Shown here piece after piece: positions 5,257-58,250 of a stretch of 64,000 nucleotides of DNA. The notes under the pieces are model-generated. The model made no database searches. It saw only the letters and a list, made by a program, of their open reading frames with translations, and was not told where the DNA came from. The stretch's first letter is position 1. Every line of letters starts with the position of its first letter. This stretch comes from Catajapyx aquilonaris. Its lineage: Eukaryota. The translations under genes were made by a program, and so were the position numbers. The stretch spans positions 1 through 64,000 of the forward strand of contig JYFJ02000131.1 of NCBI GenBank assembly GCA_000934665.2, written 5' to 3'.

Positions 5257-6176
5257 ATCAAAGGGGCAGAGATGTTAAAAGTTGATGCTGTCACAGTATT
5301 TTCGCAACGACGCCATCAAATTTGACGAAATTGCGACGTACTTGCTGGACGAGTCAATACTGTACAGTTTCTATATTTTGCCTACAATTTGCACTAAGCG
5401 AGCTTAAATGCTTCTGAACTATTTACATCAAATGAACAACCAAATAATTTATGATTCAATTGAAAATGCATCTAGCAAGTTCAGTGTACATTATGGATTC
5501 TTTTTTATATAACACAAACACATACGTCTCTAATAAGCAGATCTTTGCACTCTGCATTATTTACTCATGTTCATTGATAATAATATTTTTGCCCTTGAGT
5601 AAGTTCAGGGCCAAAACACACACGTTGCACCTGTGTATGGCAATGAAATATTCACCTGCACCTTCACGTGTCATTGGCAGCCTTCGTACACACAGCTCAT
5701 GTTTAGCTGACATAAGTTTCCATCGTATTGCAATCAAGATCCTATTAACCTGACAAGTTCAGCTGACTTGAATATTAATTTTACAACAAACCAACCCCCC
5801 CTTTTTTTGAACCTCCCCAATATAGTCCCCGCAAACCACACCTGAGCCTGACGCAACATCGACCCCAAATGTCTCCAGTTCTGCTACTAGAACCCTTCAA
5901 ACTCTCAAAACCACCGTTCCTCCTATACGTGGAATCCCACCGATGATCGAACAAAGTGGATTACACCAGCAGAGAATGGCACTGGAACTTATCAATTTAA
6001 TATCCCCGGACGTGCCCCGTTTATTGGATCCAGAATTTTGGGAGGCTCCCTCGTATATATATACACACAGCCTTTGGTGTATGCCACAGGTCAAGTACTG
6101 GTGGAAACAATGTGTAGAAAGCCGAATCAATAGTTGGCTTTTGCAGAGTGTGGCCTCGTTTGTATAATATACTTAC

Positions 6177-6289
6177 TCTTTTCTGGTCCGGTCCTCCAAA
6201 AACCTCTCCCAGAAAGTGCTTCTGTGTTTAATTCTGAGCACGCTCGTGCTCAAAGTCCGTGGCAGGGCTTGGCTCCTGGCGTCCATCAT
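6177..6289 (-). CDS. PDE4: PDE4 alternative first coding exon downstream of the UCR1-start exon (truncated-UCR1 isoform, candidate)
   Basis: actATGATG start, MMDARSQALPRTLSTSVLRIKHRSTFWERFLEDRTRK, then a phase-2 donor AGA|gtaagt (37 codons + 2 nt). GC-rich, coding-like composition. Confidence 0.72.
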
Positions 6290-15255: not shown

Positions 15256-15435
15256 CCTTCGCTCGCGATGGATGAGTTTCTGGACATGGACTTTGGCGAC
15301 ATTTCGAAGTCCGAGTCCGACCTGTACAGGAAGGACTCTCGACGCTGCGGAAAATTCTGCAGGACAAGTCCAGGCGAGTTGGCCGCCGCGTCCAGCGGGC
15401 TGCGTCCAGGACTCGAGCCATTTTCCACGTCGAAA
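15256..15435 (-). CDS. PDE4: cAMP-specific 3',5'-cyclic phosphodiesterase 4 (dunce/PDE4), first common exon of long isoforms (N-terminal half of UCR1)
   Basis: Translates to [61 protein letters not shown], the recognisable PDE4 UCR1 start with the RRES PKA site. Acceptor gctaattttcctttgtcttctattttgcag|, donor GAAGG|gtaagt. 180 nt, phase 2 at both ends. Confidence 0.97.
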
Positions 15436-24334: not shown

Positions 24335-24474
24335 CTGAAGACCTGCGCGCACGTAGGTGTCGGAGTCCTAGTCTCCCTGTACCATATGACTGTTCCATGT
24401 CTCTTGAACTTCTTCAACTCAACAGTCTTCACTTGACCTAGTAGCGGCGAGGACTGATTTTTCTTCCTGAACAT
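24335..24474 (-). CDS. PDE4: PDE4 alternative first coding exon, basic N-terminus (candidate)
   Basis: gccATG with an upstream in-frame TAG, MFRKKNQSSPLLGQVKTVELKKFKRHGTVIWYRETRTPTPTCAQVF, then a phase-2 donor CAG|gtaaag (46 codons + 2 nt). Confidence 0.62.
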
Positions 24475-26014: not shown

Positions 26015-26518
26015 TTTTTTTCGATCATTGCGTACTACTTCAAACGGAACAAATTAACTCGTTGTATGTTGTAGTGCTCGTTACAAAATATTGAATGGAA
26101 AGAGTATAGTCACATTTTGAAATGTATGAGTCGTATACATCACAGTAATACTGGTTGTATATCAGGATTTGCGGGTCGAAATATCTCACTCTCACGCTGG
26201 ATCACACCTAAACGAATAGCCAGCACACCAACAATTTGAAATAGCCATCGGTGCTGCTTGCGTGCAAAGACTCATATTTCATCACCCCCATGCCAAATAT
26301 TTGCAGAAAAAAATCGCAAAAATCCCCCAATGCATCTTGATAAACCCACTACAAATCTGAAGGGATAATTATTCCCTCCTAATCTCGCGCCCCACACACA
26401 TTTTTTATTATATAAATCACCCATTTTTTTTTGTTACCATCGGAATGTCTGCGGTATGCACAAAAATGCCAACAAGGCTGGCAACCTCCCCATCCTCAAA
26501 AAAACGACTCTTTCTTAC

Positions 26519-37572: not shown

Positions 37573-37921
37573 TTGAAAAACACGCTGTCGCTGGCCGTTC
37601 TGGAAATGACCAATTTGGGAAAAATAGCTGTCCTTCCCCCTCTAGTCCTCATAGTACATGTGGTCGCAGTCATAGGTCTCTCAGGACTAGGACTCATAGA
37701 CAGGGGACTCACAATGGTCAGACCTCGAGAGTGACCAGGTACTGAGAGGTTCAAGTTCAAAGGTGGCAGAGATGGCGGTCGGCGTCTCCTCGGCAAAGTT
37801 TGGTTGAGGTCAAAGTGTTGCTGCCACATGGTCACAGAAGAGGTCACGACCTCAGCCTCCTCATGTTGTCCCATGTTGTCCTTCACTTCGGACATGGCCG
37901 TGACTTTTGGGTCACTGCCAA
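37573..37921 (-). CDS. PDE4: PDE4 isoform-specific N-terminal exon (candidate; PDE4B1/D7-like)
   Basis: Acceptor tattttcctcag| at 37921, gccATG at 37895, and an open frame MSEVKDNMGQHEE...LPRRRRPPSLPPLNLN...RPMTATT...IFPKLVISRTASDSVFF ending at a phase-2 donor CAA|gtgagt, in frame with the UCR1 exon. Confidence 0.75.
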
Positions 37922-39100
37922 CTGAGGAAAATATATCCGGTCCAATGTATAACCAGAGGTATATTTTTGTTAACACTTTATTCCTGAGGGATTTTTTATG
38001 GAAATATTGGCGGCGGTTGTGGATTATATTCTAACTCTCGAGTTTGGCCTTGCTGCGCGCAAAGTTTACAGCTGCTAATCGATGAAAGTCCGGGAATCAA
38101 TACGTGTACTTTCCGAATTTCATATGCGGCCTACAGTTTCGAAATGAATGTATTGCCAATGTTATGTTAACTCACAGTATCTGCTGACGCAATTTCTGAT
38201 CAACACGTGTGTTCACTAGATAGACCTCATCAAAATTCAATGTTCGTTTAATTTAGTAATTTTATCTACAACGTCTAAAATAACTGTTATACTGTATATG
38301 AAAATAACTACTTAAAAGTCATCTCAATAGTAACATTTCGTGGCCACGAAATTTTTGAAACCAAGTTTGATCTCAATTTTCGGGCCCCCACATTTGATAT
38401 GCAGAACTTGCTAATTACAATCGGCATATTTTTGAAGCCGCAATGCTACTGATGTGTTAAACTCTTTCCGCGAAACAAATTTCTGGCCCACCACGCCGCG
38501 AAACGTAATATCGGGGAGCGGCGTCAAATCTACGCACTATCCAATTACAGGATTAATGAAATGGCAAGGACCAAAATTAGTGGGTTCCAACCTAATTGCT
38601 CCAAGTTAGCCCCAAATGCATCACCCCCCACTTACAGCCCAACACGTAAACAAAACTGACTTTCGTACACCCGCCTCTCGACTACTACTGTAGCCTACTA
38701 TAAACACAACACCTTGCTCAATAGTCTTTATCGCAATCGGGACCTGTAGTATTTCCTCCGCGATAAACAGCCGTAAATATTGCGCAACATATCGTGCTCC
38801 TATACGATTTATTATGATTTTATACAGTCACAATTCGGTGTAATTTTCCTGTTTAACTGACACAACACGGTCAAATTTGTCCGCACTTAGCACTACCTGT
38901 ATATCCGTGTGGCTTATTCCGCGATATTCCTGGAAGTGCGATAGAGGCCACCTGGAGCTATTTTCCCTCCTGCACACACTGGTGGTGAAGATATACATAG
39001 TACAATAATACATGCAGGCTCACATCTGGGGCGGAGTCATGCTATAAAAAAAATTCATCTCGTCCGTTCTGCAAAATTAGGGTGTACATTGTACAACAAC

Positions 39101-42800: not shown

Positions 42801-43260
42801 GGAACAGGGAAGCCCAATCTCAAGTGATGGGAACCGAATTGCACTTGATTTGTGGCCATCTTCTTTTATCCCCCCTCACGTGTTACCTAGCCGTATCTTC
42901 ATTGTAAGTCCTCTGTGTCAGTCACACGCGACAAGGTCAGAAAAAAAGAGACCCGCAGGCCATTACCGAGGGCGTCTCCTTCGCAGAACTCCCATCTATT
43001 TAAATGATTGCTAAGTACATTGCGACCCACAATTACTGCTCTTGTCCCTCACATCATAAAAGCCGCTGTTAAATAGCTTTACAGCCCTCAACAGTTTTGC
43101 TACTTTATGTGCAAGCAGGTGTGAAGGCACAGGCGATTAAGTGGCTGTCACAGTTTTGTCACAGTTACTTAAAAATAACAAGCCACTATAATCCGTTGTT
43201 CCGAGGGGATGTACGGACAGTATAGGAAAAATTCTGGCAAATTAAGTGTTCTCAGTTATA

Positions 43261-43562
43261 CACTGTACTCCCGATCATTCGGAGGTAATGACTGCACGGG
43301 TATCGCAGGATAATTGGAAAATGGTCCTAGATACCTTAAAATGAGCTATTCACAGGTTTTTAATAAACGACTGTACATACTCACATACTGTATTCTGCTT
43401 TAAATAAGATTTAATCAAAATTAGAAAACTCAATAAATGTTTAGTTTGTCTTATGGGAAAAGGCAATGATATTTCTTTGTTGCAAAAAAATTTGACATTT
43501 TTTTCGGACTTTTCTTTAGCCTTGCACGTATAATCCGCACCCGGATAATCGGGAGTACAGTG
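43261..43562. mobile_element. MITE-like non-autonomous DNA transposon, TA-flanked (Tc1/mariner-type target site)
   Basis: Terminal inverted repeats TA-cactgtactcccgatcattcgg ... ccggataatcgggagtacagtg-TA (22 bp, 2 mismatches). About 300 bp with no convincing ORF. Confidence 0.75.
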
Positions 43563-43690
43563 TATATAAATTAAACCGAATTGAGCGTAAGTCGTGATTG
43601 CAGATTTCAAGTATTTCTGCTCAATGTATAATGTAATGTAAAATTATGTGTACAACTAGATTTGATTTTGAACTGTGCAATATTAATGTA

Positions 43691-43840
43691 TACTATCGGG
43701 TTCAAATACTTTTGGCCACTTTATCCTGGTCTTGAAGCATCCCTTCGCACAGACCCCACGTTGAGGAGGTGTGTGTGTCTGTGTGAAGGGATGCTTCAAG
43801 ACCAGGATAAAGTGGCCGAAAGCATTTGAACCCGATAGTA
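43691..43840. mobile_element. Fold-back (palindromic) MITE, copy 1
   Basis: About 64-bp near-perfect inverted arms tactatcgggttcaaat...gaagcatcccttcgcacagac / gtctgtgtgaagggatgcttc...atttgaacccgatagta around a short loop. Confidence 0.85.
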
Positions 43841-44361
43841 CATGAAGATATTATTTGTATCCAGTTTGCAGGTATTTTTTCTATGAAGAGTACGCTGAAT
43901 ATAAATCAAGCCCAATGTAACTGCTACTGAACTGATCGCTTCTATTTTCTCATCAAAACTGCGATCACCGCTAGTCCAAACATGACCGTACATTTCTTTG
44001 GCCCCCTCCCGAAGCGTGGAGTGGACGTGACCGAATCTGTTGCGTCCTCCTGCTATGCAGATATGGTCTCCACTCGAGTGCCACCTGCAGGAGCTTTTTC
44101 ATCGAGAGAGAGCTCGTCCCATTGATTCAGGCGCCAGAGACACCTGTAGAGTTTCCGGGGAACAATTCGAGCCAGACGAGCCAGCTGCAGCAGCACCCGG
44201 CACTTGAAAGCTAGCCTCACCTCGAAGCCAAAGAGCGTACTACGACTCTCTGTGCTCTGTATACAGTGTCGGTGCAGCATATACACTGCGTACAGATGCG
44301 GCACAAGTCCAACCAAATCACCTGAGGTTCTCTCGCCGGGGCGCTTTTTGCCAGAGGAAAC

Positions 44362-44396
44362 ACTTACCTGAAAGGAAGAGAATACATTTGTTAAAC
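44362..44396 (-). other. Candidate recursive splice site (ratchet point), junction at 44368|44367
   Basis: The minus strand reads gtttaacaaatgtattctcttcctttCAG|GTAAGT: branch-like TTTAAC, pyrimidine tract, about 85 nt without another AG upstream, and a perfect donor immediately after the acceptor. Confidence 0.7.
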
Positions 44397-44799
44397 ACGG
44401 TGATAAAATAATGTAGAGTATCAAATAATAAATATTTGCACATTTCACGTGAGTTTCTAATCCCCCTGTACAGACGTGTAACATTGAACCATGTGGCTTT
44501 GAGGCCATCCGGAATAAATAGCAGCACATGTCGCCATGAGCTACCATGTGGTCCAGAACAAGGCGCCTGAACGTGTCTTTTCGCATATGTTCCACAAAAT
44601 AGTTGGAGAGCTGTTGGGGCCTTTCGTTGGATAAATGCAAAAACTAAATGCTAAACAGTAAACCACATTCCACTGCAAAAAATTACTGTAATGAGAGTTT
44701 AAACATGCGATGTAGGCAGACACCGACATTGACTACGGATTTGCAGTTCAACTTCATGTGCCCTACAGTTTACGTAACAATATTCATTTCAGCGCATGA

Positions 44800-44845
44800 T
44801 CCCCCCCCCCCCTGAAAGCANNNNNCCCCCCCCCCCCTGAAAGCA
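44800..44845. other. Assembly gap (NNNNN at 44821-44825) with duplicated flank
   Basis: poly-C + tgaaagca occurs on both sides of the Ns, consistent with an unmerged contig overlap. Confidence 0.9.
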
Positions 44846-44861
44846 GATTAACAATGAAGAA

Positions 44862-44997
44862 GTACTATGGGCCTCAAATTGTTTTGGTCACTTTATCCTG
44901 GTCATGAAGCAACCCTTCACACACACCGTGGAGCCTGTGTGAAGGGTTGCTTCAAGACGAGGATAAAGTGATCAAAACAATTCGAGCCTCATAGTAC
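44862..44997. mobile_element. Fold-back (palindromic) MITE, copy 2 of the same family
   Basis: Inverted arms gtactatg...cactttatcctggtcatgaagcaacccttcacaca / tgtgtgaagggttgcttcaagacgaggataaagtg...catagtac. Clearly homologous to 43691-43840. Confidence 0.85.
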
Positions 44998-47900
44998 ATA
45001 GTAGTGTGTCAAGGTATTCACCAATGAACAAAAAAATATATTTCTCCACAGAATTCCAATTATTAGTACTGTATGTGCGATGCCGATATATTAGGTCTTC
45101 GAGACAATAGTAGTCTAATAATAATTACTGTACCACACCAAGCAAGTACTTTGGCAATTCCAGAATCTTAACGTGAATTTTCTAGTGCAGAATTAGCAGG
45201 GTGGCCAGCATTAGAAATGCATCTAAATCACTCGTTAAATGCGACGAAAATGCCTCAATATAATCCGAATATTACTAAATATCCATACGTATTAGCTTTA
45301 TGTGTTAGCAGAATGTCACAAAACAGCCCATACAATCTTATTTAGGGGCTAAAAATGAGCATTGTGAAATTATGAAATTGCATCAGTGAAAATAGCATGC
45401 CATGTCATAATTACACGCAGCACTTCTGGCTTTTAAAAAGGTGGAGTGAAAAAGCACGATTGTGCATTACACTTCCCCTTTTAGTGAATGAGCAATTATT
45501 ATGATTCACACGTTTGTCTTTTCATCCTGTCAGGCGGATAACCCATGCGCCTTCTTTGTCTCACGTATTGCGTAATTTCAGGGGGTAACTCATGCTCCGA
45601 ACCTGCAACGCTATGTACTGATTGGTGTTGCTGTCAGCTGAAATATACTGCATATCTCAGCCATACCTTTATAAGGGTCCTAAATTGGGCATGAGCGACT
45701 TGGTCAACTAGGTAGCATAAATTGGCTAATATTGACACGTTCCTGTAAAGCTCCGCGGTACCCCTGCTTAGCTAAAGACGCGTCCTTAAAACGAAAAAAA
45801 AATGCAAATTCGGCATGCAAAGTCACCAAAATTATTCGCTATGTGAGGTAGAAAAGGTTTTAGAAAAATATTGATCTGCTCCATTACAATGCGGTTGCAG
45901 AAATATGGTAAAAATACGAACACGTACCAATCAAACCGTAATTGCATATATTATTCTCTGCATTGAATCAAGGGTCTGCTTGGCTTGTCAGCGGCTCTTG
46001 ATAATATATTATTGCACATGATGTTAAATTGATTACTGGAATAATCTGGCCTATTTTGGTGGGTGCAGCATTCAGTAAATGCATCTCTCGCAGACCCACA
46101 CTTGTATCAGTAGTACACGTCACTCTCAAGGTGAAATACGAGTACATCCAGTATGCAGAAAGTGCATAGTAATTCATGTATAATGTATCGCGACGATATT
46201 TAACAATATTATCTATATAAAATGAGAAGCATTTCGATTTTTGTGTCTTTCCTGGAACCGCAAAAATTCTCGGAAAGTTAAGAGCTAAAATCAGTTTGAA
46301 ACTAGGACAATCTACAGTATATATTTATAAAATATTTATGACATTTACATTGCATTATTTCTGTTACATTTGGTGCTACTTAAAATAATCATTGCCGGTG
46401 GGCAGTACCTAATCTAATAATCATGAATTTAATCCTAGCCAAGCGCACAACCATCAATGATAGTTTCATTGCAATTTAAAGTTTAATGAAATCCATGCAA
46501 TTGTTACCACGTCTTCGTCGAAACATTATCAATTTTAAACATGTTTTAACGTAATCTGACCCAATATAAATAAGTCGCGTTTATAGAACAATATCAACTT
46601 TAGAACTAAACTTTACAATTTCAGTTCAGAAAATGTTTCATCTAAACAACAGGTATTATTAGCAACAATGTCCACTCAGATGCTACCATATAGCATGTAA
46701 AAGCCAATATTGAGACACTTTTAAAGATAAATTGCCTCAGAAACACAATCATTACGTCTTTGTTGCCTGTCCTTGGCCAGCGGCAAAAATATCAAATCCA
46801 GCCCCACTTTTTTCTATTTCCAAGTAAACAACCCGCAAACGTGCAAAACATATTTTCCAACTCGGAGTATTTAAAATCAATCACGATTTCTGCTGAATCG
46901 CCTTAACCGCCATTAAATTCGACTTCTTCGTCACAAAGTCCAAAAAGTAACACATAAATCACTGTCAAAATATGCCAGAGCGAATAAGCCACTAAATCAA
47001 ATTTCACGTCAGAAGCAACTCGGCACGCTTAACTAACGTCTTCCCCCTTAACTGAGCCGGTACATACAACCCTTGCTTTTAATCTACAGCACATCACGTT
47101 ATTGAAAGGAAGTGCAGAGTAAGCAAGCTTTGCACTGTGTACTTTAGATCTTTTTAACTTTGACATGAACGTCATTAGTTGACGGAGTTTCAAAGGAGCA
47201 AGCCATAAACGAGGGTTAATTGACGACATTAGTTTGACATTGTTGCAACCTTGGACACCGGAGGGGGCTTAAAAAAAGAGGACCACTGTAAAGGCTAAGA
47301 ATCGTAATAGTTTCTGGCTTGGAGTGAGTCCAATAAGAGAGTCCCATTGGCCCCTCTCTCTCCTATAGGGTTCCATCAATGCGACTTATAGCTTAGGGAG
47401 CCATTAGGAGAGAAGGTGGGTCACCCCCCGAGAGGCCCTTGCAAAAAGGCCAATAGTGGTCTCTAAGGCCCCTCAAAGTCAGTTCCTTGCCCAATTTCCT
47501 TTTTTTCTCTCACTGACACCCTTCCAATACATCCAATTAATCCGCTCAAGAAAGGGCTAAGATTGACTCAGACTTTTTTGAACGAAAGGCGGAATATTGA
47601 ATCTGGCATTACTTGGTTTCAAATATTTTCTGCAGAATTCAGTTCGTGCAATTTTTTGTGCGGCACTTACCAATATTTTTTATTTAGTAAATACCCTACA
47701 CTCTTCGTGTATAGGTTTTGCCCAAAGTATGATCATAAAATCTAGCAAATGTAGAATTCAAAAAAATATATAATTATATTCACTGCAAACTTTAATGGCT
47801 GCGAATTCGGAGCGATGCCGATTGCAAACAAGCAGTTCATGCTGAAAATATGATAAATGATAGCCGGCAAAATTAATGAGGCAGAATTTATTACTTTGCG

Positions 47901-50900
47901 TACTCCCACCCGCAGCATTTTATTTGCAAGTTTCAAAAGCAACCCCCGCATTGGAATTGCCTCGATTCCGCCATTAATCATTAAACCACCTACTATACTT
48001 GTTGGCACTCCAGTGTTGATCACTATATCTTTTTTTCCCCCGAAAGCCAGTTATTCCCGCTATGTACGCAACACTGAAACGAAGGGTGCAAGTAAAACAA
48101 CACCAGCTCGCTCACACATCCTATGAACTCAGGTATAATTCACTGTGTTATTCCAATAAACATTAGCTGCATTATGAACAAAGGGTTCACACCACATAAC
48201 GATTGTACTGCGTTAAGTTTATTAAGTCGACACGCAATTGGTTACGTCCACAAACGATTCCGACACTATTTAGCATAATTTAATAAACATACAGTAACTC
48301 TCAATGTTCACCTCTATGTCTATATAAAGGGGTTTAATGTTAGCTCATAGATTTTTTTGTGCAAAATAACGTCGACTTCAAATTCTTCCGGATTCGGACC
48401 TTCCTGGAATAGGTCCTAGTGTCGCGGAATTTTGGCGGCTCTAATTTGACCCCAATCTATTCTTAGTGGCGTCCATTAACATCGGAGGTCCGCCCCTCCC
48501 TTTGCCGCAAGGGAGCCACGAAAATTCGCTTTTCTCGCAATTAGTCCGCTAATTCCTGTCCGCAGGGGTAGGGGAGGTGGGGGTATGGATGGGGAGGGGG
48601 GAGGCTGCTTTTGTGCCGACTTTGCCCGGGAATCCCCAAACCAAAATCCGGGCTCTCCGGCCTTTACCTCATCAGGGAACTCCCGCCTCGAGCGGATACG
48701 GTTTCAAAAGAACCAAATAGTAGAAGCAAACTTTTGTGCACTTTTTTTTGGAGGATAGTCTTGCTGGTGGAAAAATTGAGTTTGCCAACAACTGGTTACA
48801 TCAGCTAATAGTTCCCAGCACATTATAATATTGGTATGCCCTTAACATTGACAAATTGTGTGCTCACTGATAGTTGCAGACAGTAACAGTTTGTACTCCC
48901 AGAACAGACATCGGATAAAATCAAGCTTCAATTCCCTATACGACCATAGCATATTCGAAATTGTCGCTATAACTTTCCCTTGTTCTAGCCAAAATGCGCG
49001 TGATGTCATGAAATAACATAGTGTCTTGACAAATTCTGCAGCTCCGTACGTATAAGACATCCCATCTTCTCGCCTGACGAAACTTCTCATTTGAATATTG
49101 ATTAGTCGAAAGGCTGTCCTGAATTTAATAATGTTGCCAGTGATTTTGACTGCCACTAATTTGAGGCTGGCTCCAGTTTTCAAAATTTTCCAGGGAGTTT
49201 GCGGCATTAATGATCATTATCGGCTAGGCCTGGGCTTTACAAGTTGCATAAGCATTTAATCAAATTATTAGTGTCCCTAATCCTTTCAAAGTGAGATTCC
49301 TAATCCTCCCAGGGCAAAATGATGATCGCGTTTACCGAACTGGCATTAAGGCCCCCAGGATCAGTAATGGAAATCCGGATTTCTTTTTTTTTCCACCACC
49401 TCTTCTCTCCGGATAACAACTCGGTTGACTCGCCGAGTTCGCCTCATGAAATATATACTTTTCCTCCCCCCCTTTTTCCCAGCCTCCATTTAGCACCCGT
49501 CTCTTCTCCAGTCATTATGCAGAGTGCAATGGTACATCGATCTCTTGGGCCCCGTATCCAGGCAAACCCCAGATATTCCCAACCTATTTTGATGAGAAAA
49601 CTGCCTCTTGACGCTTCAACAACTATAACAACGACACACAGTCCTGTCATCAAGATTGCCATTGTGCAATAAACAACCTCATCCAGAAGGTCCCATTTCC
49701 ATTTAAAAATAGCTCCGATATTATGTTCTACACTTTTAAAATAGTTGATATAAAGTGCCGTTTTTGTTTAAAGCTGATTATTTCAGTAACAAGATGACAT
49801 CTCTAGACAAAAATATTCAGGAGCATACACCATAGAAAGTTGTCGGTATATTTACAAAACACCCTATTCCCCAAATGCTAGGTCGATTCAATATCCGAGT
49901 GTTAACCCAACACTCCACGAGTGTCCTGAGGCCCGTTCTCTCTCTCTAGCTCTCTAGCTCTTTTTTTACAGTCCCCATTGCGCGAGCTAGAGCTTTGAAT
50001 CAAACCGTGTTTGTTATTCCAGTCCGAATTTCGCAGGCTGAGAAAGAGCAGCGACCATTCCAGCTGTTGACGCAGCTTCACATTAATCTCCAGACGATGG
50101 CGGTGTCAACACAAGCTACACCCGCTCCACTTTTTAAAACAACAGAGCATGCCTCGGCATTTTATATCTTTTAAAAAAAAACGTGCTATCCTCCTGGTTT
50201 AATCTTCGTGTCCGGGGATAAAGCTTTTTTGGGGGGCCGGATTGCACTCTATGAGCCGCATCGAGGTGCGGTTAGATCAAACACGGTCTGATAATTCGGT
50301 TTTACGGAGTTGGCATTGTCCAAATCGAATTCGAGTCCACGGCTGCTATTATAGTTGAAATGGTGGGGGGAAAATTGCATTAACATTTCAGTGGCCGACG
50401 TTATGCTCCTTTCTTGCTCATTGATGGACGCACGCGCGTTGTGCTGCTGCGTATAAATGCAACCTGAAATTATAGCCTATTGCTTTTCCAACAAATTGCA
50501 CATTGGAATTTATACGGCACGAAAAAAAATATTGCCAGGTGAAAAACATTCCTCGCAAAATTAGGCACAATAATCCAAACAATTTGCAGCAAATAATTTT
50601 AACTTTGAGTGCATAGATTCCGCTTTAAATTAGCATACGTACATTTCCAATCATTTTTAATTTTTAAAACATTACAATTTGACATCCCGTTATCGTCAGT
50701 GGGATAATTTCGGTGCTTCATTGTTTTGATTGACAAAAGTTGCAATTAGTTAGGTTGTGTCGCAGCTGCTCAATATCTATGGTTGTGCTGTGTGGCGGGG
50801 ATTGTGCTTTTGCAGAAGAAGAAGAAGACATTTCTTTCGATGAGACAATTCCCGGAGCCGGATTCACGAGCTGAATAATTCCGGACTTGATCCAATCATT

Positions 50901-52783
50901 AGACTGAGACAAAAGTTTCCTCCCGAACCTTCATTTGAAGGGAAAGGGAGCGGAAATTCGCAACGAGGGGGGAAGGAAAAGACATGGTTTTCAGGTCTTG
51001 CTTTTCGCAATATGCAAGTAGTGTAGGCTTGCAGTAAGTCTTTCTTCAAGCCCCTTCCGCAAGATTGTTTTCCTCCGCTCAAAAACTTTGTTTTCTCATG
51101 TTGAGACGCAGTAAAGTTAATTACTGTGCGCTACATTTTGCCATTTTTGTGCATATCAACTATAATTGCTTCATTTAATATCGATGTGCAATGCATTATC
51201 TATGGACAACTAATTGTACCACAATTAACATTTTGGAGATATTTTGGCGAACCACTGTATGAAAATTTAAATCGTCGCATTTGGTGTACCTTTCAGGTCC
51301 AATAAATCGGTTGTCAAAACGTGCAAAAGGTCATCATCACCCCCATTGTGATGACAACTATTAATAAAACCGATTATTTCAGCCCCCGAGAAGTCAGACC
51401 TGTCAACATGTATTGCCACTCTGCATGTGACCTTGAATGTTTTAAAATTTCTGCTATACAAAAACCTTACAGGACCTTTTTCAGTCGTGTGTGCATAGGC
51501 TGACTAGATGCTATGAGGTGAAGAAAATTTATGGACGCCGCCGACTTCTTCGAGTGCTTCTGATGCCGCTGCATGTTTGGCATTCCGACAGGGAAGCAGG
51601 CCAACTTTTTTTTTTTACTTCATCTATTTGGCCACTTGTAGAAAACATCGAGAGAGACTAGGATACGTCAGAAATAGAACAGTCGGACCTGGGTGCAAGT
51701 ACACCGCGCGAATTGTATAGTATACAACACCCAGGTTGACAGGGATCTTTGCATCACCCTGTACCTTTATAATGAATCCTGGGCTAATAGCTCTTTGACT
51801 AACGGTAAGTCGTTATAGGCTCGTAAATAACTCGGGTGTTGCAGCCAGCATCGGTTATATAGCCCGTAATAAAAATGCGTCACACATGTTTGACGCAATG
51901 TTTTTGCAGCTTTTTTAATATGTTAGTGTCATCGTACATACTCGGCTCCAGAATAGTTGCACGTTCAATCATCCGAAACCTACTTTTTTATTCCGGAGGC
52001 TTCATCTTGGCAAATGTTGGTTCCTCGAGAGACGTAGCTCATCATTTGGGACCTGCTATCTCATGTTATACAAACCGAAGTGCTGCGCCTTCAACCCTTT
52101 TTTTATGTCCCGTGCTGCCACCTTGCAAAAATGAACTTTTTTTTCCATGCAAATGCACAGCCGCCTACGAATAAATTTACATTCTCCTTCCCTGTCAGCT
52201 TTTCCCATTAAAACGTAAATGGCGCTCAAACACTGAGCCAGATTACTGACCCTGCCAATTTTTTACCTCCCCATTTTTTTTGGCACAGTGCGACACACCG
52301 CGCAAAAACTGTCACACTGTCCTTGAACAATCCACATTCATCACCGTATACTGATTCTTAAAAAAATTAAATTAAATTTTCTTAACAGCTTTTAATTTAT
52401 CGTGAAATTAAAGTAGCAGCACTACGGTCGGGTTTCACCAACCTGGTTAAACTTTAGAACCGTCGTAATAACAGGAATTGTCGTAGCAACCATTGTTGAC
52501 AACGATCAATAGTAAACATTTTCCGACAAGAAGCTCGGATTTATAAATTATAACCTGCTTGGTGAAACCGGCCATAAGTGTAGATTTCAAGTAAGAGTCA
52601 ACAAAATACTTAGGCTCAGCTTGAACTACTGTAAATTTCCATGAACTGATTAAAATATGCCATAATTTAAACGAGCTGAAGTCAAAAACCGAGTTCAATT
52701 CAATCTCAAGTAAAAACTCAAAGACGAAAATAACTCAAAAATATTTTAGTGTATCTTCTTCTTGAACTTGAGCATTGCCTCAC

Positions 52784-52944
52784 CCTGTACATTCCCTATA
52801 GGCCTTGACGTCCCATACACCAAAGCCACAGTATCGTATTCCTGTCGTACATCCGCCATCCTCATAATATGTAAGGCTATATCTCATATTCTGGAGCTCC
52901 TCTATTTGCAGCCACGCCTTAGAAATTTTGGAGAGGGGAATCGC
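52784..52944 (-). CDS. PDE4 isoform-specific exon with its own acceptor (candidate)
   Basis: Acceptor ttcctttcccag|. Open frame AIPLSKISKAWLQIEELQNMRYSLTYYEDGGCTTGIRYCGFGVWDVKAYRECT (ATG at 52887), then a phase-2 donor AGG|gtgagg. Confidence 0.52.
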
Positions 52945-55508
52945 CTGGGAAAGGAATTGAGGGACAGACACGTTCCATGCGGGCAGAGAGTGGATGAGAT
53001 GAGAGTAGAAGGTACTAGAGAGAGATTCTCATTTCTATTCTTTTTTTTCCCCCCGTCGTCTTCCTATCCCGACACCAAACACAAGGCCCCGGAAGAGACG
53101 AGCAATCACTTTTCATGACGCCTGCGAACTTCTCATAACCTGGATGGTTCCTATAGCTCTTTTCTCCGGATCTGAATCGATAGCTTCCAACCACAGAAGT
53201 GCAGAATCAACAGTGTGTACTCAGGGCAGCAGGGTCAAGGTGAAGGTTTGTTAAAACAATCAACGGATTTAATTTTCCAAGAAATATACTGAACCATGTG
53301 GTTAGAACTACGCCAGAAATTTCGGAGCAACGACCTCTGGACCAATCAGTTCCGACCATCTTGCGTGCAACTTGGCAGTTATTTTGAAAGCTAAAGTCGC
53401 AGCTACTTGAAGATAAACCCGTAAATAGAATGCACTTGTGAGTCTAGTTCACTACAGGTCATCAGAATGTTTCATTTTAATCAAAACCATTCTATGATGT
53501 AATATGCAAAATAGACAAATCGATATTGCCAAAATCAACCAGGGGACAAGCCTCAATATTCCTTCCAAATTCCTCCCTGATTTAGGCGTCTCCCGAGCAC
53601 AAATTCACTAAAACTGATGACACCGAGCCTATTACGTTACCCTATAGCACTGCCTAAAGACAAGCCAATTACCATTGCAGGGCCCCGCCTGTGACGTCGT
53701 TGAACCATGCAATTTGGTGGGGAAATGAAGAACTGCGGACAAATGACAATCACCACAGTTTGCGAATCTATACCCGCCCATTCCGACTGAAAAGTGCAAA
53801 CAAAAAAATATACCCTCGCGGATTCCTCTCTTTTTTTTTGTACCCATGCACAAACGCTGAAAAGAGCGTGGCTCGACCCTAATTACCCAATATCGACTTT
53901 CCATTAGGCAGCGTTTGACCGACTTCTTCAATCAGCTATACGTATGTAGTTGCAGGGATCCACACACGTGGCGCTTCAGAAACGTAATGTAACAATAATG
54001 AGCAAAAATTCCACTAATATTAGCTAAAAGGCTTATTCTCTCCGTCTGGTGTTTGTCCGATATGATAGTATCGCTATCTCTCGCACAGTGGCAGGAGTAT
54101 GCAGAGGGAGTATGCGCCATCTATGCGTAAAGAATAATACTACGTGGTAAATCGGCGGGCCATCTAATTAAAGTTGATTGTCACTGTCATACTGATTACA
54201 AATTTTGGCAACGGGTTCAATAGTTATTAGTTAATATTCTGCAGCCTCTAAAATTATCAGTTTCAAATATTCGTTTCCCCAAAAAAATAATTCAATTGGA
54301 AGAGAACGTGGCATTCCGGATACGTGTTTGGAGACTTTTGGTCCGTACAGGGTTGTGTTTTCACCGCAAAGTGCAACATCCACCGGAATTCAATTGCCCG
54401 GAACTGTTGATAGAAGCGTTTTCCCTAGATATCGTCAAGGGTTAATCATGCAGAAGTTTCTCGACTTGTTGGGAAATGGTGGGCTTCAGGGGCTGTTTCT
54501 CTGAAGCGGCGGTGTTTTAAACAAAGGGAAGCGGGCACACAATTGGCGAGGGGGAAATTTTCCACATGCAATAGTCACAACATCGGTTGGTGTCACTCCA
54601 AGAATTTTTTGGAGAGGCTGAAGCTGGGCCAACTGCTAGAGAGCTAAAAGTCGAAAATGCAAGGATCGTAACCTTGGCCTTACGCAACAGACACAACCAA
54701 TTGCATTTCTGCATTCAGCTTTGTTGAAAGTTCACACCGAAGCTGATGTTTTCCATTGTGACGCAAAATGCGTTAGTGACAAGCTGTTTATTGCAGGTGA
54801 CGCAAATTTTCCCAGATTGCAATATAATTATTGTTGTTAAGAATGTAAGCCGATTAATATCCGACACATCACGTACAGTAGCTTTCACTGAGTCTGTTTC
54901 ATACTGAAGCAAAGCTACTTACTATAAGCCGTCATAATGATTTTTTTAAAAAACCTATTAGTATTGCGGAGCTGCGTACTCGAAAATAATAATTCGTTTT
55001 AAACAGGCACTTTTCCATCGATCTACGTCAGACCCTTTTTGAATGATTAATATGGGAAGAACTATTAGTCACACAACAATATCGACATTGCAGTCAGGCA
55101 TGACAAGCTACATGAACTGTAATGCACAAAATAATAACTGTATGTGCGCATATAATATTAATAACGCCGAGAATGATATCCACGCCATTTTGCTGAAAGG
55201 TTGAAATAATCTAAAATAATCTCTGCCAATATGAATTTCGCATGAAATTTGCAAGGATCGCATCATACGTTCAGTACATGCTTTTATCATGAGTCATCAC
55301 ATGGTACTTAAAAACAATTTTAAAAAACATGCTTTTATCATCAATTATATGCTGTACGCGACATGTAGCAACAAGCACCTGACTGTCCCATCTATTCTAG
55401 ATGTCGCTGGAATGCCCAGCACAACCCCATTTTAGAAACAAAGTCGAAGTTGATATTTTGCTTGCCAGACCCTATTTTTTAAGCTGGCAAAACTCAGCTG
55501 GCATATAC

Positions 55509-55804
55509 CTCAAACACCTCCTGAACAAGTCGTGTTGCTTCTTCGTTTCAGCGGATCTGACACACTGAATGTTCCTGGACGAAGTGGTGGTGCTTGTGGA
55601 CGTCGAAGAGGACACGACCCTCGACGAAAATTGTACCGTTTTGGTTTGGCACGACGACTCTTCCTCTTTGATGCCCTCCATCATACCCATGACCGAATCG
55701 TGCTCCAGAAAACTCGGCGAACTGTGCGAAACAGTCATCTCTCGCTTCATTTTGGACTGATGCCTCCCAGCCACTATCTGGATCCCAGCACGCTTTGTCT
55801 CCAT
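55509..55804 (-). CDS. PDE4 alternative first coding exon, Ser/Thr-rich (candidate)
   Basis: aaaATGg, 98 codons METKRAGIQ...VVSSSTSTSTTTSSRNIQ...HDLFRRCL, then a phase-2 donor GAG|gtatat (weak to moderate). GC-rich and coding-like. Confidence 0.55.
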
Positions 55805-58215
55805 TTTTGTGAGTATGTGACTCACAAAATTCCGACACTAAAATGTCAAAAACACCTCACTCGCGACAGTACCACGTCGCCTCCACAACCTCAATGGTTC
55901 TAAAGGCCCGTCCAAATTCGAGTCCTGCACCACCCCTCTTTTCACCCCGCTCCCAGTGATATCACCGCCAATGCTGGCAAGGAGGCAAAGTCATCTGAGA
56001 CTCAAAAATAGACCGCGGCTCTGTAGGGTTGCTCAGGCGTTTAGTGATGAAGTGACACGAACGGTTTCGTCTGGGTCGCGAGTCCTGCTATGCTCTCTTG
56101 AATTAATAATAAAACAGGTCCTAACTCTGGCCCTGTTAACATTGCACTTTCACATTTTAAAAAAATGTATATTTCCGGATTATGCATGCACACCCAAACA
56201 TTGCTGGTGTTAGTAAGCACTATCCACAGTGTTTATTTATTAGATATGGGGGATTCAACAGAGTGCAGATCCTGACAGAGTGTTGTTTCGACCAGAGCTA
56301 AAAGTGTGTGGGGGTAACAATTCCTTGCTCGATTATTTAACACCCACGGTTATGCTCCAATAGTCTGCAGTCTGGCGGAGACAATGAAAACTTCGTTCTT
56401 TTTATAAGAGTTGAATTATTGTGCATCGTGCTCTCTTTGTGCGTTTCATTAGCGAGTACTGGCATCTTCCAAGTTCATTAGCAGAGCGCTCAACCCATTA
56501 AGAGATGAGAGAGCACGTAACAGCTTGTTTTCTCCTCAAGCGACTGTCAAGTAACTCACGATCTTTCCGCACGTTTTTAGCGAATTTCTGAAAAATTGCC
56601 TGACAATTATTTTGCACATTTTCATTAGCGAATATTAATAGGATTTTAGACAGTGTGTACAAAGCCGCGCGGCATAAATGATTGGTGTACTCTGCAAATC
56701 CCGTTTAATCATCTTAAGTGTATTAAAACACTATTTATACAAGGCTAATTTTTTACGTTATCATACATGCGCAATAATTACCAGAGGACCGGTAATTTTG
56801 TCAGTGTTGCTTTATGAATACGTAATTGTGACAGCCATTGTACATCGCGTTTAATTAGCTCAATGGCTTCATAAAAGCACTTCTCAATCCCCCCTGCATA
56901 ATACTATAGCCTATGCGTCCATCCCCGTGTTTCAGCATGATTACCTCAAAGGCAATCTGATTACAACCATGCCTCTTTACAACCCGTCACAAATTTTTTA
57001 GATCAATAAAACGTGCGCATTGTAAGGCAGTTAAATCGCCCTGCTTAATTCACCACATGTTTTTACCTCAATGTATTAAGTGTAAGAATAAATTGAATAT
57101 TTTTCACGTCTGAATTTTCAACTGAACGGTGCTCATTTTCCACTTAAAAAATCCGTGTTCAACGGCGTAGAATTTGCATTAAATTTTTCGCAATATTCCT
57201 GTTTGGAAAGTTTCAGGGTATAAAATTGTGTGTAAAAAATTATTGAACAATTATGTCTGTTGTAAGTGTAAAATGCGTCTTATTTTCACATGACAAACAT
57301 TTGCACTTTTTAACAGGGCATTCACCGAAAGCGAACGATACACTGTTTTTAATACAATCGGTAAATATTTTTTTACTACTCACTTTTCCACAATAATACG
57401 CGATATTCAGCACAATAACCTCACATTTGGCTAAACACAACCAGACGCGTCTGGTATGTGACTGAAACAATGCAAAAAAATATATTTACGAACAACTACG
57501 GTGTGAAAACAGTGTCATGCGATTTCCGACCATTTACACCGCGCTAACTCTGGAACGTACCGAATGGATTTCACTTCATTTTGCGAACTTGGTATTCAGA
57601 AAGGAAATTGCGCTTATGCCCTTTTCCATTACCGGAAACGCGGCTCTTTTTCGAACGGAAACCCTTCCCTTTTTTTCATCGCTCTGATGCGATCAGAAAG
57701 TCAAAATTGCGATCAGCGACGGGAGAATCAATTGGGATGAATTATGACCCAATTTTTTTTTTGAGCGAAATCGTTTGAATTGGCAAGGAACCAAGATTTT
57801 GGGGGTTCTGAAGGGATAATAAAGAGCTGCAAGTTTGATTCCGATTCCAGCACACTATACAGGCTAAAAAAACGCAGCGTTCCAATTTTCTTCCGGATCA
57901 ATAGACTTACATGACCCTGCTTTTAGTATTAAGTAAGCTACACGGGTACTTAACGAGTTGGCTAGAACAGCAAATTATGGCCAGACGTGCGTCAGAAATA
58001 TTTAATGAGAGTCATTAACGGTTTGGAGAGCTGTAATAATTAAACATGTCTATCGCAAAAACAGGTGGCGTTTGGCGTGTTTCATGATTAACAACTTCCC
58101 CAGTTAGACGATTTGTTTAAAAAATCATTGGGGAAATTGCAGGGGGGGTGTGAGGATAATAATTTAGAAGCACTGTACCTTACACGACTAGCACATGAAA
58201 TTAAATCACGGGTCG

Positions 58216-58250
58216 ACTTACCTGCAAGGGAGAAATATGAGTAATCAATA
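58216..58250 (-). other. Candidate recursive splice site (ratchet point), junction at 58222|58221
   Basis: The minus strand reads tattgattactcatatttctcccttgCAG|GTAAGT: branch-like TTGAT/CTCAT, pyrimidine tract, about 60 nt without another AG upstream, and a perfect regenerated donor. Confidence 0.7.

Follow-up and report, generated by a model that had tools for sequence, protein, structure and literature searches.

A pair of candidate recursive splice sites within the 5' introns of an arthropod PDE4/dunce gene

Analysis of a 64,000-nt stretch of DNA from Catajapyx aquilonaris (contig JYFJ02000131.1, positions 1 to 64,000; hereafter the window) revealed a PDE4/dunce gene with two candidate sites of recursive splicing in its 5' intron region. 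Based on their sequence features, we assume with a probability of about 0.6 that both are intronic recursive splice sites of the Drosophila type, i.e., ratchet points, in the 5' introns of an arthropod PDE4/dunce gene. In both cases, the minus strand carries CAGGTAAGT (44370..44362 for site 1 and 58224..58216 for site 2), in which an acceptor-like CAG runs directly into a donor, giving CAG/GTAAGT (the slash marks the splice junction). A first-pass annotation made from the letters alone had placed two sense-strand copies of this arrangement at 58221 and 44367, about 14 kb apart; these coordinates proved to be exact, with a distance of 13,854 nt between the sites. The result is, in our view, a well-founded prediction and no surprise: the mechanism is a known one and has already been described in this phylum.

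The likeness of the two sites extends beyond the junction itself. Between positions -23 and -4, 15 of 20 nucleotides are pyrimidines at site 1 and 16 of 20 at site 2, and TT occupies positions -5/-6 in both. Upstream follows a zone free of AG, which covers 87 nt at site 1 and 64 nt at site 2; gaps of such length precede 0.65% and 2.5%, respectively, of the 3,564 AGs on the minus strand. A branch-like YTNAY motif with its A at -24 was identified at each site, namely TTAAC at site 1 (A at 44391) and TTGAT at site 2 (A at 58245). The 1-kb flanks of the sites were single-copy within the window and unrelated to each other, and no pyrimidine tract followed by CAG/GTAAGT was detected on the plus strand of the window. 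The long AG-free zones had already been noted in the first-pass annotation, as had the resemblance to the signature of recursive splicing, which indeed fits the published features of fly ratchet points; TT at -5/-6 is one more such feature that had gone unmentioned there.

How rarely such a combination is expected was estimated in several ways. The sequence YAGGTAAGT matched the window twice, both times on the minus strand, compared to 0.76 expected matches. An acceptor-like position was then defined as YAG with TT at -5/-6 and at least 14 pyrimidines in 20 nt; the TT criterion was taken from the literature and the thresholds were partly fixed post hoc, so that the resulting figures are indicative. 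With this definition, the minus strand holds 24 acceptor-like positions and 11 GTAAGT, two of which coincide versus 0.004 expected under independence, and the plus strand holds 28 and 13, respectively, with no coincidence, in agreement with the earlier statement that there is no antisense equivalent. Altogether, each strand of the window would be expected to hold the composite motif about 0.004-0.006 times, and for this reason a chance origin of the composite is unlikely. Among 400 first-order Markov simulations, two produced one joint site and none produced two. The 20-nt pattern YYYYYYYYTTNCAGGTAAGT, which was composed after the sites had been seen, matched only sites 1 and 2, and not one of 100 dinucleotide shuffles gave any match. 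A looser pattern with one mismatch allowed matched twice versus 0.20 expected, a number reached in 1 of 100 shuffles.

By sequence comparison, the window carries a PDE4/dunce gene that has the minus strand as its sense strand. PDE4 was recognized by its conserved N-terminal block, with RRESF at the start of UCR1, which was found in the exon at 15435-15256 (Table 1). Its peptide of 60 residues revealed 90-93% identity to arthropod PDE4 proteins and 83% to a nemertean protein, the one lophotrochozoan protein in the set, and its arthropod relatives carry PF18100 together with PF00233. The catalytic exons fall outside the 64-kb window. A tblastn comparison of all 121 proteins of the comparison set with the window added three isoform-specific exons at about 37.9, 24.4, and 6.2 kb, every one on the minus strand. 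The 37.9-kb exon matches the long isoforms of Penaeus, a stick insect, and a beetle (tblastn E 2e-5 to 1e-3), is joined in frame to the UCR1 exon (AA+T), and provides the next mapped acceptor downstream of site 1; alternative acceptors would set its first base at 37983 or 37914. A word-indexed search with its peptide returned no relatives, and a full HMMER search returned one match to a repetitive protein, which was judged spurious. The 24.4-kb exon likewise joins the UCR1 exon in frame (AG+T). The 6.2-kb exon matches residues 126-162 of a termite PDE4 (tblastn E 9e-10); it begins with M, and its location downstream of the UCR1 exon is consistent with a short-form promoter.

Both candidate sites sit upstream of the 37.9-kb long-isoform exon and of the UCR1 exon. 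Since the 37.9-kb exon is internal and must receive upstream exons, the sites are located in the 5' intron region, and both the assignment to PDE4 and the choice of the sense strand in the first-pass annotation were correct. The possibility it raised of a lophotrochozoan-type animal, on the other hand, found no support: the isoform-specific exons match PDE4 of decapods and insects, and the UCR1 exon is closer to arthropod proteins than to the nemertean one. Given these arthropod-type isoform exons, the idea that recursive splicing would here be extended to a little-studied lophotrochozoan lineage is unsupported, and the sites most likely represent a new instance of the fly-type mechanism.

Downstream of both sites, further donors were found that could delimit short cryptic recursive splice exons (RS-exons; Table 1). 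In addition to the donor that would end a 46-nt exon, site 1 is followed by GAG/GTGAGG (GT at 44220-44219), which would give an exon of 147 nt. Apart from the 38-nt exon, site 2 has alternatives of 43 nt (AAG/GTACAG, GT at 58178) and 311 nt (CAT/GTAAGT, G at 57910), the latter with stops in all three frames. These downstream donors were graded as weaker by their match to the consensus alone. If the candidate upstream exon described below is joined to site 1, the junction reads AGG TAA, a stop codon, so that a transcript retaining the cryptic exon would be unproductive.

Taken together, the sites would work as follows. In transcripts started upstream, each site would be recognized as a strong 3' splice site by means of the branch A near -24, U2AF binding to the pyrimidine tract, TT at -5/-6, and CAG, probably aided by exon definition across the short cryptic exon, which ends at a weaker donor 38-46 nt downstream. 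Ligation of the upstream exon to the AG would rebuild a consensus donor (exon end/GTAAGT), and this donor would outcompete the weaker one downstream and be joined either to the following site or to the 37.9-kb exon at its acceptor. The intron would in this way be removed in pieces, and the mRNA would keep nothing of the site. We infer the usage of the sites, the order in which they would be used, and the upstream exons that would feed them from the motifs and from their position relative to the PDE4 exons.

A possible upstream donor exon, which could begin the coding sequence of the long isoform, was identified between the two sites, though the candidate is weak (Table 1). With hmmsearch, a profile built from 12 long-isoform N-termini gave one weak match (E 0.15) in the open reading frame (ORF) 55837-55475, aligned at the start methionine of the relatives. 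The candidate (local GC 0.51) lies in the 500-nt stretch with the highest GC content in the upstream region, and the stretch 55475-55840 displays long open frames on both strands. Comparison with hhalign left the candidate unsupported (probability 0.4%), a word-indexed search with its peptide found no relatives, and tblastn placed no N-terminal residues of any of the 121 proteins between 38 and 64 kb; a profile of observed to expected CpG was uninformative. Its two spare bases fit the acceptors that give 37983 or 37914 as the first base, not 37921. If this weak candidate is real, site 1 would divide an intron of 17.6 kb into segments of 11,141 nt and about 6,400 nt; site 2, located 2.4 kb upstream of the exon, would serve more distal transcripts or a 5'-untranslated region (5'-UTR) intron.

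Table 1. Location of the candidate recursive splice sites, PDE4 exons, and neighboring elements in the window (coordinates in nt; the slash marks splice junctions)
Feature	Coordinates	Strand	Remarks
Candidate recursive splice site 1	44362..44396	-	...tgtattctcttcctttCAG/GTAAGTgtttcc, CAG/GTAAGT; G of the regenerated GT at 44367
Candidate recursive splice site 2	58216..58250	-	...catatttctcccttgCAG/GTAAGTcgaccc, CAG/GTAAGT; G of the regenerated GT at 58221
Possible cryptic RS-exon of site 1, 46 nt	44322..44367	-	Weaker donor CAG/GTGATT, GT at 44321-44320; read from the sequence
Possible cryptic RS-exon of site 2, 38 nt	58184..58221	-	Donor CGT/GTAAGG at 58183; read from the sequence
Weak candidate first coding exon of the long isoform	55509..55804	-	acaaaaATGg, 98 codons + 2 nt, donor GAG/GTATAT
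Conserved long-isoform N-terminal coding exon	37573..37921	-	Acceptor tttcctcag/, donor CAA/gtgagt; LNLSVPGHSRGLTIVSP...RTRGGRTAIFPKLVISRTASDSVFF
Alternative 5' coding exon QVKTVELKKFKRHGTVIWYRE...	24335..24435	-	Donor TTCAG/GTAAAG; matches decapod isoform N-termini
PDE4 exon, UCR1 start with RRESF site	15256..15435	-	Acceptor ttttgcag/, donor GG/gtaagt; encodes FDVENG...
Alternative exon MDARSQALPRTLSTSVLRIKHRSTFWERF...	6177..6286	-	Donor /GTAAGT at 6176; downstream of the UCR1 exon
MITE-like palindrome (copy 1)	43691..43843	.	About 520-680 nt downstream (sense) of site 1
MITE-like palindrome (copy 2)	44862..44999	.	About 500-630 nt upstream (sense) of site 1
MITE, miniature inverted-repeat transposable element.

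Other explanations have to be weighed against this reading. The AGs could be the acceptors of expressed non-coding or alternative exons whose initial GTAAGT is used sometimes or never, in particular a 311-nt 5'-UTR exon at 58221-57911, or else a 46- or 147-nt exon starting from 44367. These would be expressed RS-exons resembling the Ubx microexons, or plain cassette exons. Such exons would be in line with the consensus donor CAT/GTAAGT 311 nt past site 2 and the good donor GAG/GTGAGG 147 nt past site 1, with a GC content of 0.50 just downstream of site 1 and an open frame of 196 codons that crosses this site, and with five acceptor-like positions (the UCR1 exon included) that have GTAAGT at most 400 nt downstream, compared to about 1.7 by chance on a rough estimate. 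Expressed RS-exons also have a precedent in flies, for which an excerpt of PMC8605326 gives a number below 50. Against this, the 311- and 46-nt versions hit stops in every frame or right after the candidate upstream exon, and the 147-nt version is open only in phase 0, whereas the next exon requires phase 1 or 2. None of the 14 ORFs tested, including those crossing both sites, reached a Pfam curated cut-off, and a search of the ESM Atlas with the frame downstream of site 1 gave no usable match. Moreover, an ordinary exon would start with GTAAGT about 1.7e-4 of the time (11 GTAAGT in 64 kb), so rarely that the juxtaposition would still need an explanation of the recursive type. Overall, we consider expressed exons an unlikely explanation. 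Alternatively, both sites might be conventional donors of alternative first or 5' exons whose ends are pyrimidine-rich by coincidence. Multiple promoters are usual in PDE4 genes, and the window holds several alternative 5' exons (about 24.4, 6.2, and 37.9 kb); in addition, open frames reach both junctions and leave one base, which is the phase that the acceptor at 37921 needs, and an ATG is located 76 nt upstream in the frame of site 1. Still, the end of an exon needs neither a pyrimidine tract nor TT at -5/-6, YAG, a branch-like motif, and an AG-free zone of 64-87 nt, and in 64 kb only 24 AG positions of the minus strand look acceptor-like, the real acceptors included. The open frame at site 2 lacks an ATG, and the encoded peptides are AT-rich, hydrophobic strings that matched none of 120 PDE4 relatives, so ordinary donors seem very improbable to us.

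A further possibility is that the motifs arose by chance or were carried in by a transposon, and that the spliceosome ignores them or uses them as noise. Most AGGTAAGT motifs in long mammalian introns are reportedly unused. Site 1 is located within a 1-kb stretch between two MITE-like elements, and the 9-mer YAGGTAAGT alone is not unusual, with at least two matches in 18 of 100 shuffles. It is the composite motif that argues against this explanation, with two copies observed, both on the sense strand, and with the simulations and shuffles given above, none of which yielded two joint sites or the strict 20-nt pattern. Besides, neither the stretch between the MITE-like elements nor either 1-kb flank recurs elsewhere in the window. 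We therefore regard chance or transposition as quite unlikely, if somewhat less so than ordinary donors.

Several points nevertheless weigh against an assignment as ratchet points. The case is built on motif statistics from one 64-kb window with thresholds in part chosen afterwards, and this window was picked from a very large scan, in which some chance cases are expected overall. YTNAY motifs and donor-like GTs downstream are frequent by chance. The MITE-like palindromes and a nearby gap may indicate that the region of site 1 is young or partly mis-assembled. Regarding the upstream side, the only candidate donor exon (55804-55509) is weak by hmmsearch and unsupported by hhalign. If it is the first exon, site 2 would lie upstream of its promoter and serve only distal transcripts; if it has an acceptor, the intron of site 2 could be short compared to the fly minimum of 11.3 kb.

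With regard to the surroundings of site 1, the two MITE-like copies are 140-150 nt long and 74% alike, with ends GTACTATCGGG...CCCGATAGTAC and TA-like flanks. The hairpin formed by copy 1 is almost perfect (-79 kcal/mol, z -13.4), and the window contains no third copy. In a transcript, base pairing between the two copies could also loop out site 1. The gap mentioned above, NNNNN at 44821-44825, is located 455 nt upstream (sense) of site 1 with an identical copy of the poly-C motif CCCCCCCCCCCCTGAAAGCA on either side; in appearance, it is a gap left in the assembly at a homopolymer. Furthermore, a 26-nt inverted repeat (92% complementary, 43257-43282 and 43541-43566, arms 258 nt apart) was detected, which may mark the ends of another small element.

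Elsewhere in the gene, a weaker third recursive-like site, ttattcgccttgccccag/GTAAGAAAG, was noticed at 26518 on the minus strand (CCCCAG/GTAAGA), with 15 of 20 pyrimidines, CC at -5/-6, and an AG-free zone of only 17 nt. It lies almost exactly midway in the intron of 22,137 nt that separates the 37.9-kb exon from the UCR1 exon, with 11,054 and 11,083 nt on its two sides. Strong acceptor-like sites with GTAAGT 93-270 nt downstream were also seen on the minus strand at 61542-61450, 55192-54923, and 47841-47671. As coding exons, all three were ruled out by stops in all frames and a GC content of 0.32-0.43; such pairs could be 5' exons of the non-coding kind or have arisen by chance. An Rfam scan of the whole window revealed no match, and exact 24-mers of both site cores had no match in metagenome contigs.

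Confirmation at the RNA level would add the two sites to the small number of recursive splice sites known from arthropods other than Drosophila. As a clean pair, they would also lend themselves to tests of how donors compete at cryptic RS-exons, in a gene that controls cAMP signaling and memory, and would add a third lineage with a recursively spliced PDE4.

The closest resemblance is to the ratchet points of Drosophila, as in Ubx, kuz, and luna. Fly ratchet points are strongly conserved and have a pyrimidine tract stronger than that of ordinary introns, with TT at -5/-6 in 196 of 197 cases compared to 44% of ordinary introns; branch points of the recursive lariats mostly fall between -36 and -21, and the host introns span 11.3-132.7 kb with segments of 2.6-63.6 kb (Duff et al., preprint 10.1101/006163). 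The sites described here display the same order (Y)n-TT-N-CAG/GTAAGT on the sense strand of what would be a long intron in a neuronal-type gene, and the A at -24 of the branch-like motif would fall within the fly range at both. The range of fly segments covers the 13.9 kb between the sites and the 6.4 kb to the next acceptor, and the intron of site 1 (17.6 kb, if the candidate exon is right) would be near the short end of fly host introns. According to an excerpt of Joseph et al. (PMC8605326), ratchet points need a cryptic exon of about 50 nt, usually out of frame, whose donor is weaker than the regenerated one. The weaker donors at +46 (site 1) and +38/+43 (site 2) would agree with this distance of about 40-50 nt. 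In contrast to the fly ratchet points, which were demonstrated by RNA and conservation, the sites in this animal, which is not Drosophila, are predicted from their sequence.

Among other arthropods, a recursive site in NPF1 of the migratory locust was predicted from motifs in a 230-kb intron and, as far as the excerpted report goes, supported by U2AF65 RNA immunoprecipitation (PMC8892266). In that excerpt, the site shares with ours a non-dipteran arthropod host, a branch point and pyrimidine tract upstream, and hairpin-forming sequence nearby, though the locust intron is far longer, and the hairpins here are MITE-like palindromes about 0.5 kb from site 1 with no known role. In the orthologous fly gene dnc (FBgn0000479), one junction-supported site is listed at X:3219959 in an intron of 11.2 kb (Pai et al., supplement, PMC6110457). 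This places a recursive-type junction in an intron of the same gene in another arthropod, but its regenerated donor is weak (CCAG/GTTTAA) and was seen in S2 cells only, whereas both sites here have a perfect GTAAGT and were identified by motif.

For human PDE4D, an excerpt of PMC6110456 lists three recursive sites, two of which it attributes to Sibley et al.; this bears out the statement of the first-pass annotation that this gene has such sites; a later preprint uses it as a positive control. Human PDE4D belongs to the same family, and its long 5' introns, which serve alternative promoters, have the AG/GT core with a regenerated donor as well. A premature stop upon inclusion, expected of a vertebrate RS-exon in a very long first intron of a brain-expressed gene, would have a possible parallel in AGG TAA at site 1 and in the stops in all frames of the 311-nt exon at site 2. 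The vertebrate sites differ in that they lie in introns of hundreds of kb and were demonstrated by RNA, and nothing here indicates positional orthology with the PDE4D sites. One might nevertheless suppose that recursive splicing of 5' introns is an old, retained property of PDE4/dunce that predates the split of protostomes and deuterostomes, with individual sites turning over; a 5' region with many promoters would then have needed stepwise intron removal here, in an arthropod outside the Diptera, as well as in dnc of the fly and in PDE4D of humans. We consider this very unlikely, and the ancient link with PDE4 proposed earlier finds its support in no more than the presence of long PDE4 5' introns in flies, in humans, and here. 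Altogether, recursive splicing affects PDE4 genes of flies as well as of humans, and the simplest reason for this would be their long 5' introns with multiple promoters, and not a shared ancestry of the sites.

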